Part shown: positions 23,112-24,623 of the stretch, in pieces
How the letters are laid out: each line of letters starts with the position of its first letter
How positions within the stretch are numbered: the stretch's first letter is position 1
Assembly: GCA_018303005.1 (NCBI GenBank)
Contig: JAGVYY010000001.1
Location: 1-52,113 of the forward strand
Origin: Candidatus Woesearchaeota archaeon
Lineage (GTDB): Archaea > Nanobdellota > Nanobdellia > SCGC-AAA011-G17 > GW2011-AR20
DNA: 52,113 nucleotides
Direction: 5' to 3'
Notes under the pieces: model-generated
Told to the model about the DNA's origin: nothing
The model's input: only the letters and a program-made list of their open reading frames with translations
Database searches by the model: none
Made by a program: the position numbers and the translations under genes

Positions 23112-24623
23112 CTAACCCTTCAGATTCCCGATTGGAGAAAGTAAAGACACCCTTCTAGATATTCCTGATTTTTCTACAGAATCAACGACTAACTCTAAAT
23201 CCTTATAAGATTGACCGGCTTCCTCTGCTAAACCTGACCATGAAACACTTTTTACATATATGCCTTGCTTCAACATATCTTTTTGTAATTGTTCTCCCCT
23301 AAACATTTTTTTTGCTTTGGTTCTTGACATTGTTCTTCCAGAACCATGCATTGTTGAACAAAATGTTTGTTCTGCTTTTTTATCTCCCACTAAAATATAG
23401 CTTCCGGTTGACATTGAACCACCAACAATAATATAGCTTCCATCTTCACGATATTTTTCAGGTATTTCTTCTCTACCAGATGGGTGACTCGCTGTGCTAC
23501 CTTTACGGTGGACTAATAATTCTTTAATTTTACCATCAACTTTATGTTTTTCCAAACTAGCCTTATTGTGGCTAATATCTCCTAACATATGCATACCTAA
23601 ATTTTCTGCATCTTTATTAAATATTTTTGAAAATACTTCTCTTATTCTATGTAAAATAACCTGTCTATTTGCAAAAGACATATTAATTCCAGTGCCCATT
23701 GCTTTGTAATAATCCTGTCCTTCATTACTATTGAAAGGCGCACATGCCAATTCTCTATCTAAAATTTTAATTCCGTATTTTGGTTCCATTACATTTAGAA
23801 ACTTTTGTAGGTAATCAGTTGCACACTGGTGGCCATATCCCCTCGAGCCACAATGAAAAGTAATTACAATCTGATCTGAAAACAGTCCCCATTTTTTTGC
23901 TAATTTTTCATCTTTAATATTCTCTGGTTTAATGTGCTGAATTTCTAGATAATGATTTCCTGAACCTAGTGTACCAATTTGATTAAATCCTCGAACAATA
24001 GCTCTATCACTTACTTTTGAAGAATCGGCAAAATCTGCTTTTCCATTTAATTCTGTTCTTTCTAAATCTTCTTTCCAGCCATAACCTTCTTTAACACACC
24101 AATGAGCACCCTCTTCTACTATAGTTTTAAACTGTTGTTTATTTATTTTCAGAAATCCTTCACTTCCAACACCACAAGGCACTCTTTGAAACAATGTATC
24201 AACTAATTCTTTTATTTTTGGTTTTACTTCATTATAAGTTAAATTAGTTAAAACTGTGCGCATACCACATGAAATGTCAAAACCTATGCCTCCGGGGCTA
24301 ATCACACCACCATTCTCAACATCAAATGCAGCAACACCACCTATTGGGAAGCCATCTAGAGGAAGTATAGAGCTTTTCTAAAACTTCAAACCCCAATGGC
24401 CATCAGGCATACACATAGCGTATTTTACAATGCCTGGAAGAGTTGCAACATTTGTAACTTGGTCAAAGACTCCAGCATCCATATCGTTCAGTAATTTTTT
24501 ACTTGCGTAAATTCTAGCTGGAACTCTCATACCTTTCTTATACGATGGTGGTAATTCCCACACATAACCTTTATCATCCGCTTGTTTAATTTCCTTTGGC
24601 GGGCCTGTTCTCTCTTCTTCCAT
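23112..24623 (-). CDS. rtcB: RNA-splicing ligase RtcB, interrupted by a 33-nt BHB-type intron (exons 24389-24623 and 23112-24355)
   Basis: Track ORFs 24378..24623 and 23112..24305 are in the same frame, separated by a single TAG. Exon 1 ends ...[10 protein letters not shown] and exon 2 continues [32 protein letters not shown]. The spliced length is 1479 nt (492 aa). AAGGAGGAG lies upstream of the ATG. Confidence 0.9.
24356..24388 (-). other. putative bulge-helix-bulge intron within the rtcB mRNA
   Basis: In mRNA sense the region reads GGGG-UUU-GAAGU...ACUUC-CUCU-AGA. That is a 4-bp helix (2 GC plus 2 GU) flanked by two 3-nt bulges, plus an intron hairpin. Cutting after the second bulge nucleotide removes 33 nt including the TAG and creates a UAU (Tyr) codon, giving [10 protein letters not shown]. 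Confidence 0.7.

Follow-up and report, generated by a model that had tools for sequence, protein, structure and literature searches.

The window analysed here is the whole 52,113-nucleotide (nt) stretch of contig JAGVYY010000001.1 (assembly GCA_018303005.1) from a Candidatus Woesearchaeota archaeon. On its minus strand lies rtcB, the gene for the RNA ligase RtcB, which is interrupted by a 33-nt insert (Table 1). Two open reading frames (ORFs) cover the gene, 24378..24623 with 81 amino acids (aa) and 23112..24305 with 397 aa. They are in one frame and are parted by a single TAG; the longer one is listed from an internal GTG (24305). A Shine-Dalgarno-like sequence, AGGAGG, is located upstream of the rtcB ATG at 24623. 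Read as mRNA, the region is ...CAU UGG GGU U/UGAAGUUUUAGAAAAGCUCUAUACUUCCUCUAG/AU GGC UUC CCA. Deletion of the 33 nt from 24388 to 24356 recreated a UAU codon and gave a protein of 492 aa, with a predicted spliced junction of ...UGGGGUU joined to AUGGCUUC. The protein covered the Pfam family RtcB completely (1-426/426, E 1.8e-158), and its alignment to the RtcB of Pyrococcus horikoshii crossed the junction free of gaps. When the deletion was moved one base either way, Phe or Asp appeared in place of the invariant Tyr. The interrupted motif, referred to below as site 1, is Asp65-Gly-His67-x-Gly-Tyr70 in P. horikoshii numbering, as derived from the alignment. Since the Tyr codon is split as U/AU, it can be restored only by removal at the nucleic-acid level. 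The unspliced mRNA would encode just an 81-aa N-terminal fragment, and 17 conserved codons of exon 2 precede any start codon. The gene's own terminator is a TAG. An earlier note, made from the letters of the window alone, had described two same-frame ORFs for parts of RtcB with one TAG between them, the mRNA reading across the insert, and the restoration of the Tyr and the RtcB motif by the 33-nt deletion. The ORF list, the sequence itself and the two protein comparisons agree with these descriptions.

The identical split of rtcB was found on JGI, ENA and Logan assemblies, and the 81-aa ORF was present on 15 contigs. The earlier note had named re-sequencing as a way in which the insert might disappear; in these independent assemblies, the gene is split. 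The same 33 nt were found in loci L001, L002 and L004. The RtcB of L002 is only 81% identical to that of the window, yet the insert is identical base for base. Homologous introns occurred in L053 and L084. The insert is no assembly artefact.

One genome per prokaryotic species was searched with a degenerate pattern, ATGCCNGAYGSNCAY-N{25,55}-CCNATHGGNGGNGT, which describes the flanking motif with 10-40 extra bases. At least 119 loci were returned, two of which were GC-rich bacterial false positives. An rtcB gene with a 14-39-nt insert in the His-x-Gly-Tyr-Gly motif was present in at least 117 species-representative genomes. The records were titled Woesearchaeota, Aenigmatarchaeota, Micrarchaeota and Nanoarchaeota/Nanoarchaeia, and nearly all were labelled DPANN. 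Other titles were generic ('uncultured archaeon', 'uncultured Methanosarcinales'), with the same intron types as in records labelled Woesearchaeota. Among the matches listed (117 loci), insert lengths were mostly not multiples of 3. In at least 117 species, both exons had an uninterrupted frame and high conservation, and this extended to the 17 codons after the insert. An in-frame stop lay inside 112 of the 117 site-1 introns, compared with 63 and 51 in the other two frames. Alignment of related rtcB genes placed the insert in the same motif at three positions, and it was absent in some relatives.

The inserts were compared with the bulge-helix-bulge (BHB) geometry of archaeal introns. For each locus, a deletion restoring MPD[GA]H-x-GYG[FYL]PIGG was sought and then fitted to this geometry, in which the cut follows the second bulge nucleotide and each bulge is preceded by four bases, the two sets of four pairing with each other. 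A solution that restored the ORF and was compatible with the BHB geometry existed in 116 of 117 loci, the exception being L103. In 58 loci the insert splits the Tyr codon after its first base, like that of the window (position 7; one sits one base earlier), and the central helix had 4/4 pairs in 50 of them. Another 49 loci carry it directly after the His codon (position 0), mostly with 3/4 pairs, and nine inside the Trp codon, all with 4/4 pairs. For inserts placed like that of the window, the protein sequence by itself mostly permits only one deletion, so the match to the geometry is no product of choice. When the 3' partner was slid by 1-4 nt, the central helix had 1.3-2.2 pairs on average instead of 3.47.

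Covariation was evaluated in alignments anchored on the splice sites, using 500 shuffles and slid controls. The position-7 class (52 sequences including the window) had 88.5% of cells paired, compared with 67.7±1.2 in shuffles and 28-61% in slid controls. Cells with changes on both sides numbered 143 (42.7±8.2 in shuffles, reached in 0/500), and the covariation score was 0.677 as opposed to 0.254. The central helix of this class was 92% paired with alternation of AU, GC and CG, and the intron helix was 91% paired, all six counted pairs changing on both sides. The exon and the intron end change together: the Trp-Gly exon (UGGGG) is matched by CCCU or CUCU and the Glu-Gly exon (GAAGG) by CCUU. 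One exon-intron pair was AU in 25 and GC in 24 sequences of the position-7 class. In the position-0 class (45 sequences), 78% of cells were paired (shuffles 65.9±0.9, slid controls 39-53%), with 65 double-change cells (19.6±3.3 in shuffles) and a covariation score of 0.430 (0.184). Its central helix was 77% paired with three solid pairs (GUC/GAC), and its intron helix 97% paired. Here, a synonymous U or C at a Gly third position was matched by A or G in the intron (UA 31, CG 8). In both classes, none of the 500 shuffles equalled the real alignment in paired fraction, double-change cells or covariation score. The intron was also more conserved than exon third positions, the loop included. Window and L002 shared 33/33 intron bases and 54/69 exon-1 third positions; for L053 these values were 29/33 and 39/69. 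The earlier note's core claim of a BHB-type intron in rtcB is strongly supported by its occurrence in at least 117 species, the ORF-restoring geometry and the covariation of the helices.

The region 24330-24420 of the minus strand was folded, and minimum-free-energy (MFE) structure and partition-function pair probabilities were calculated. In the MFE fold, UUU formed a 3-nt bulge, GGGG was paired with CUCU, and the intron hairpin followed the bulge without a gap. Pair probabilities in the window were 0.7-0.8 for the central helix, above 0.94 for the intron hairpin and 0.99-1.0 for two listed pairs of the exon-exon helix. The bulge UUU was unpaired with a probability above 0.99.

Table 1. Features of the interrupted rtcB gene and of related genes in the window.
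Feature	Position	Strand	Details
rtcB exon 1	24389..24623	minus	Met1 to first base of Tyr79 codon
rtcB exon 2	23112..24355	minus	last two bases of Tyr79 codon to stop TAG at 23112-23114
BHB-type intron (relaxed, HBh'-like), 33 nt, UGAAGUUUUAGAAAAGCUCUAUACUUCCUCUAG	24356..24388	minus	removal restores colinear RtcB
In-frame TAG within intron	24378..24380	minus	ORF list and translation
Central helix, exon strand GGGG	24391..24394	minus	pairs with CUCU 24358-24361
Central helix, intron strand CUCU	24358..24361	minus	MFE fold, pair probabilities, covariation
5' bulge UUU	24388..24390	minus	predicted cut 24389/24388, after second bulge nucleotide
3' site AGA, opposite UU (24395-24396)	24355..24357	minus	predicted cut 24356/24355
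Intron hairpin GAAGU/ACUUC and UAGA/UCUA, loop AAAGC	24362..24387	minus	MFE fold, pair probabilities
Exon-exon helix, exon 2 strand, 5 bp (GGCCA/UGGCU)	24350..24354 with 24397-24401	minus	outer helix, offset by UU
tRNA-Thr(GGU), 25-nt intron 17946-17970 at 37/38	17909..18006	plus	Rfam tRNA 53.6 bits; aragorn -i
Archease gene (RtcB activation cofactor)	20924..21346	minus	Pfam PF01951, E 6.6e-41; about 1.8 kb downstream of rtcB

Very probably, the 33-nt insert is a relaxed BHB-type intron in the rtcB pre-mRNA that is cut by the tRNA-splicing endonuclease EndA and joined by RtcB. The sequences show the anatomy, its conservation, the covariation and the restored ORF; that EndA makes the cuts, that RtcB seals them and that the RtcB level is affected at all we infer. 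In the transcript, the GGGG of exon 1 and the CUCU at the 3' end of the intron would form the 4-bp central helix. The 5' splice site would then lie in the UUU bulge and the 3' site in the loop of AGA opposite UU, with the hairpin and the exon-exon helix on the flanks. EndA would cut after the second nucleotide of each site, leaving a 2',3'-cyclic phosphate and a 5'-OH, and pre-existing RtcB together with Archease would join the exons and recreate the UAU (Tyr) of His-Trp-Gly-Tyr-Gly. An unspliced mRNA would terminate at the intronic TAG after 81 residues. Because the interrupted gene encodes RtcB, its expression would depend on RtcB: new enzyme would be made only where active enzyme had already been inherited at division, a positive, licensing-type dependence.

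Several observations weigh against this reading or limit it. At the 3' site, AGA lies opposite UU in a 2x3 internal loop, and a canonical 3-nt bulge is missing. Two A-U pairs are present here in the MFE fold, with the G alone bulged out; opening these pairs to the strict BHB-like form costs +3.2 kcal/mol. The fold drawn in the earlier note held for the UUU bulge, the GGGG/CUCU helix and the hairpin, and failed for AGA, which is not a clean 3-nt bulge. Although the MFE structure of 24330-24420 contains the proposed elements, the single-sequence fold was no better than that of shuffles (z = -1.48), and the window structure taken alone is suggestive only. The motif fits the relaxed HBh'/BHL class and not the strict hBHBh' class (classes according to PMC5829648). 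In most homologues of both classes the strict-register exon-exon helix was weak or absent; as a family, the rtcB introns appear to be relaxed, HBh'-like motifs. Covariation counts and shuffles take no account of the kinship of the sequences; given the slid controls and the existence of several independent intron families, common descent alone is an unlikely explanation. No Pfam match to EndA was detected in the 54 of 64 window ORFs of at least 80 aa that were scanned. The spliced junction, searched as a 44-mer with synonymous degeneracy, had 0 matches in JGI metagenome contigs, which contained neither a cDNA nor an intron-less allele of this species by this search. Homology searches among 5.8 billion protein clusters gave no full-length spliced product: the best full-length match to the spliced window protein was 73% identical, and the sole 100% match was the exon-2 ORF. 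An exact look-up of ten spliced protein variants from eight species, including the window, found none in a collection of 15 billion sequences. A second, intron-free rtcB may exist elsewhere in the genome. Finally, a positive-feedback dependence of an essential enzyme looks risky, which counts against a regulatory role and not against splicing.

Explanations other than splicing were weighed against the same data. An rtcB pseudogene with a palindromic DNA element or lesion, in an organism relying on a host ligase or another ligase, is highly improbable. DPANN genomes are reduced and host-dependent, the insert has a stop codon and a hairpin, and NCBI labels such genes 'RtcB family protein, partial' (P0244), all of which would suit a pseudogene. 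However, open and highly conserved exons in at least 117 species, including the 17 codons before the next possible start, do not, and the 3' end of the insert covaries with the upstream coding sequence at the ORF-restoring register, for which a DNA element would have no reason. The contig also holds a tRNA that requires RtcB and an archease gene. Split protein genes occur in Nanoarchaeota (Nanoarchaeum), and gene callers give an 81-aa ORF and a 383-397-aa ORF, so RtcB could be pictured as two polypeptides from a split gene that assemble with no RNA splicing. This is extremely improbable, as exon 2 begins with neither a start codon nor a ribosome-binding site, and a start at GTG 24305 would lose the invariant segment of 17 codons conserved in frame. 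Moreover, the break falls inside the Tyr codon of a catalytic-core motif, not at a domain boundary, and covariation of the structure would be unexplained. The probability of translational handling, by stop readthrough, recoding of TAG or bypassing as in gene 60, is close to nil. The window insert does have a length that is a multiple of 3 (33 nt) with one TAG, and a database protein, P0128, has Q at the TAG codon. P0128 comes from a gene caller with another genetic code, whereas the DNA has TAG; the locus does not translate to P0128, and this protein was discarded as a readthrough product. Furthermore, rtcB itself terminates at TAG, most homologous inserts have lengths not divisible by 3 and carry TAA, TGA or TAG, hopping cannot recreate the split Tyr codon, and the 11-residue insertion (LKF-x-KSSILPLD) would replace the Tyr of the invariant motif. 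Two other kinds of element were rejected for the window insert. With the exception of tRNA, the window had no Rfam match at the gathering threshold, and hence no group I/II intron or ribozyme core; 33 nt are far below the size of self-splicing introns of these groups. An intein was dismissed as well, the 11 codons containing TAG and not being stop-free.

Further insertions were present in rtcB. In at least 22 of the 117 loci, plus L002, a further mini-intron of 12-36 nt lies at one of four sites around the Asp95/Cys98 motif, with 4/4 central-helix pairs in nearly all cases and outer helices of 2-5 bp; for some, the best of several coding-compatible solutions was chosen. In the alignment, Asp95 and Cys98 of P. 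horikoshii RtcB fall within this motif, GIG[FY]DINCG. Both residues are ligands of the two Mn2+ ions of RtcB (PMC10630183). The second insert of L002 measures 12 nt (about 1566-1577), contains TAA and folds as CCCG-GAGG-AA/U-UUAAA-CCUU-AG/U-CGGG, so that outer and central helices of 4 bp each are separated by a 3-nt bulge on the 3' side, while the closing loop contains the 5' site. A mini-intron of 12-13 nt, TTTAAACCTTAG, was located between the Gly-Gly-Ile and Gly-Phe-Asp codons in L002, L021, L095 and L039, identical in three species and with an outer helix of 4-5 bp. BHB introns of 17-36 nt occupied three more positions inside GIG[FY]DINCG in L012, L014, L016, L017, L022, L031, L047, L054, L063 and L069, and also in L075, L077, L082, L087, L104, L105, L112, L120 and L123. 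Their outer helices were mostly more canonical than those of site-1 introns. About a dozen loci had an insert of approximately 1.1-1.5 kb, where the gap between high-scoring segment pairs allowed measurement, straight after DIN and with Cys as first residue. Such inserts are inteins, sited at the catalytic cysteine, and PF14890 matched P0059 and P0097. They were seen in L009, L018, L027, L041, L053, L068, L078, L086 and others, and the same genes also hold RNA mini-introns. In L023, L090, L011, L045 and L093, the frame breaks again after ...TTNL or ...LRTDW, about 120 aa into rtcB, which suggests further intron positions downstream. L022 and L048 had N-terminal rtcB-like fragments 1-2.5 kb from the main gene, L086 an overlapping rtcB-like fragment and L009 a 44%-identical paralogue. 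Such extra matches could be duplicated exons, paralogues or assembly artefacts. Public annotations list the exon-2 ORFs of intron-bearing Woesearchaeota genes (P0244, P0245) as 'RtcB family protein, partial'; the interruption of rtcB is systematically mis-annotated.

The presence of the introns varied among close relatives. The nearest full-length relatives of the window RtcB, with about 73% identity, were uninterrupted. A site-1 insert was found in about 20 of 78 assessable metagenomic relatives (from a sample of 80, with a ranking that favours intact genes). In one tight clade, with RtcB proteins 86-93% identical, some members had the position-7 intron and others the position-0 intron. The spliced RtcB of L044, from a widespread species labelled Woesearchaeota, had uninterrupted proteins of 489-491 aa as its best full-length database matches, at 90% identity. 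Across L007/L157, L044/L151 and P0129-P0132, the RtcB proteins are 90-93% identical, and the intron lies after the His codon, inside the Tyr codon or is missing. This pattern implies a very fast gain, loss or exchange of introns.

Other interrupted genes were sought with a generic scan for BHB motifs combined with ORF fusion. The window gave 41 matches, compared with 12 on the reversed sequence, and those outside rtcB resembled gene junctions. A strict version of the scan, applied to 837 kb of DPANN loci that had been chosen for their site-1 intron, gave 74 matches inside rtcB and 109 outside. The 14 largest non-rtcB matches were junctions of two genes, often of the type X/archease, and none was convincing. 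No second interrupted gene was established in the 837 kb of related loci, with these 14 of the 109 matches inspected. In the window, the ORF for nucleoside diphosphate kinase (NDK; 27165-27749, minus strand), with two Pfam stretches and an additional segment inside, had been suspected of being interrupted; it is the long archaeal form, 194 aa compared with the 195 residues of NDK in PDB 1xqi, and has no interruption.

The rtcB intron is most likely a constitutively spliced, persistent element, selfish or near-neutral and possibly exchanged laterally; a purpose-built regulator is less likely. It is one of a population of mini-introns spread across DPANN, which are concentrated in the catalytic motifs of rtcB and show rapid turnover among close relatives. 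For a selfish or mobile element speak the Asp95/Cys98 motif shared by mini-introns and inteins, the difference between RtcBs of 86-93% identity (position 0, position 7 or none), and the presence of a site-1 insert in about 20 of the 78 metagenomic relatives assessed. Imprecise deletion cannot remove elements at these sites, whose flanks are sufficiently conserved to permit lateral exchange. If the ligase is in excess, the positive feedback loop is effectively constitutive. The same splicing with an intron kept by selection, as an autoregulatory or licensing switch, is possible though unlikely. Synthesis of RtcB would be coupled to ligation capacity or to EndA activity, GTP/Mn2+ or Archease status, and the in-frame stop would prevent a harmful product from unspliced mRNA. 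The intron sequence, conserved above exon third positions with its loop, the strong enrichment of in-frame stops, the apparent enrichment in rtcB (74 matches in the 837 kb, and 14 inspected flanking matches that were unconvincing) and the persistence of introns at one motif across several DPANN phyla all favour such a switch and keep a functional role alive. However, among RtcBs of about 90% identity the intron is missing or placed differently, which makes it dispensable; positive feedback on an essential enzyme gives no homeostasis; the scanned loci were preselected for a site-1 intron, with flanking-gene matches inspected for the 14 largest; and the clustering with inteins in catalytic motifs is the signature of selfish elements. 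More speculatively, and in our view doubtfully, a self-referential circuit, in which ligase activity licenses ligase synthesis, might be combined with mobile BHB introns that preferentially invade rtcB. In this joint scenario, invasion could proceed, for example, by reverse EndA and RtcB reactions on the mRNA beside nascent RtcB, or by recombination at the ultra-conserved catalytic motifs. It would explain the multiple sites, the rapid turnover and the conservation of introns above exons.

The surroundings of rtcB contain further components of this pathway. The earlier note had reported a tRNA-Leu gene with a similar intron 7 kb away; the gene is a tRNA-Thr(GGU), 6.4 kb away, with a 25-nt intron at 37/38. 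It was missed by ARAGORN in default settings and detected by Rfam and aragorn -i. Its intron motif is relaxed, with a 5-bp anticodon stem and 3 of 4 bp in the central helix. This tRNA is a second substrate on the contig that needs the endonuclease and RtcB, and its intron indirectly favours the presence of EndA in the host. An insert in DPANN EndA (L3 loop) has been linked by its authors to a marked rise in disrupted tRNA genes (PMC5829648). With the interrupted gene encoding RtcB and archease encoded on the same contig, the host has the 3'-phosphate/5'-OH ligase and its cofactor. Archease was near rtcB in many loci. A same-strand run on the minus strand (20564-24623) comprises rtcB, an MFS transporter, a CobW-like GTPase, archease and DUF4346. 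The CobW-like gene adjoins rtcB in L002 too, in divergent orientation; its product could serve as a metal chaperone in connection with the Mn-dependent ligase. Other archaeal genes of the window encode GatD/GatE, deoxyhypusine synthase, L10e, DTD2, TrmB and pyruvoyl arginine decarboxylase. Amid this otherwise archaeal contig, a 287-aa ORF (3259-4122, plus strand) matched the bacterial sigma-70 regions 1.2, 2, 3 and 4 in Pfam, and horizontal transfer or a binning or assembly chimera is possible. At 5606-6285 (minus strand), a PIN-domain ORF (5606-6034) overlaps a 91-aa ORF (6010-6285); the arrangement looks like a toxin-antitoxin pair.

BHB introns in archaeal mRNA are already known as a kind; new are the host gene, the implied self-dependence, the spread across DPANN, the multiple sites and the extreme of 12 nt. 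The gene cbf5 of Crenarchaeota, encoding a pseudouridine synthase, has such an intron (Watanabe et al. 2002; Yokobori et al. 2009, PMC2738675). The rtcB case resembles it in the short BHB-like intron across the exon-intron boundaries of an archaeal protein gene, in the removal by tRNA-splicing endonuclease and ligase, as proposed for rtcB, and in a patchy presence with gain and loss among relatives of a host gene that acts in RNA processing. In contrast to cbf5, rtcB encodes the pathway's own ligase, so that splicing needs its own product. The rtcB introns occur in DPANN and not in Crenarchaeota, have a relaxed 3' site and occupy several positions within 7 nt and a second cluster about 25 codons downstream, and some are 12-13 nt long. 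Splicing of cbf5 has been demonstrated experimentally, whereas the rtcB intron is known from sequence data. EndA papers up to 2025 cite cbf5 alone for archaeal pre-mRNA introns, and the documentation of tRNA-type introns in archaeal mRNA has essentially been confined to this gene. The earlier note knew of no BHB intron in rtcB, and we found no description of one in the full-text literature, subscription-only papers being outside its coverage.

The introns of archaeal tRNA and rRNA (HBh', hBH and BHL motifs cut by broad-specificity EndA, PMC5829648) share with rtcB the 4-bp central helix, the cut after the second nucleotide of the flanking bulges, which for rtcB is a prediction, and the intron hairpin directly abutting the 5' bulge, and the tRNA-Thr of the window has an intron of this type. 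The rtcB substrate differs as an mRNA coding region, with no tRNA body to aid recognition and with an exon constrained by protein and helix together. In the HAC1/XBP1 system, mRNA is cleaved by IRE1 and ligated by Trl1 or RTCB in the cytoplasm (PMC4282640). There too, a coding mRNA is cut non-spliceosomally at two stem-loop sites and joined by an RNA ligase, RtcB in animals, with a change in the protein. However, the endonuclease IRE1 is a stress sensor and not EndA, the motif differs, and the target is a transcription factor and not the ligase; regulation is demonstrated there and hypothetical for rtcB. The inteins of archaeal RtcB, directly before the catalytic Cys98, are likewise removable insertions, in this case self-removing, and they too occupy the best-conserved catalytic motifs of rtcB. 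They co-occur with mini-introns in DPANN loci, and their distribution is typical of selfish elements. Unlike the 33-nt insert with its stop codon and removal as RNA, they comprise hundreds of residues, are translated and are excised as protein.

If the splicing proposed here is true, rtcB would be a second and much more widespread host gene of mRNA BHB introns, in another superphylum. To our knowledge, it would also be the first case of an interrupted gene encoding the enzyme that completes the splicing. One could then test whether ligation capacity gates ligase production or a selfish element has settled where it is safe from loss. For hundreds of DPANN rtcB genes, present annotation gives two ORFs or a 'partial' gene, which affects estimates of gene content and host dependence. 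The introns of 12-39 nt form a natural panel of relaxed BHB substrates for the specificity of the DPANN endonuclease. The three-state polymorphism among near-identical hosts, with no intron, an intron at position 0 or one at position 7, provides a rare handle on the movement of BHB introns.

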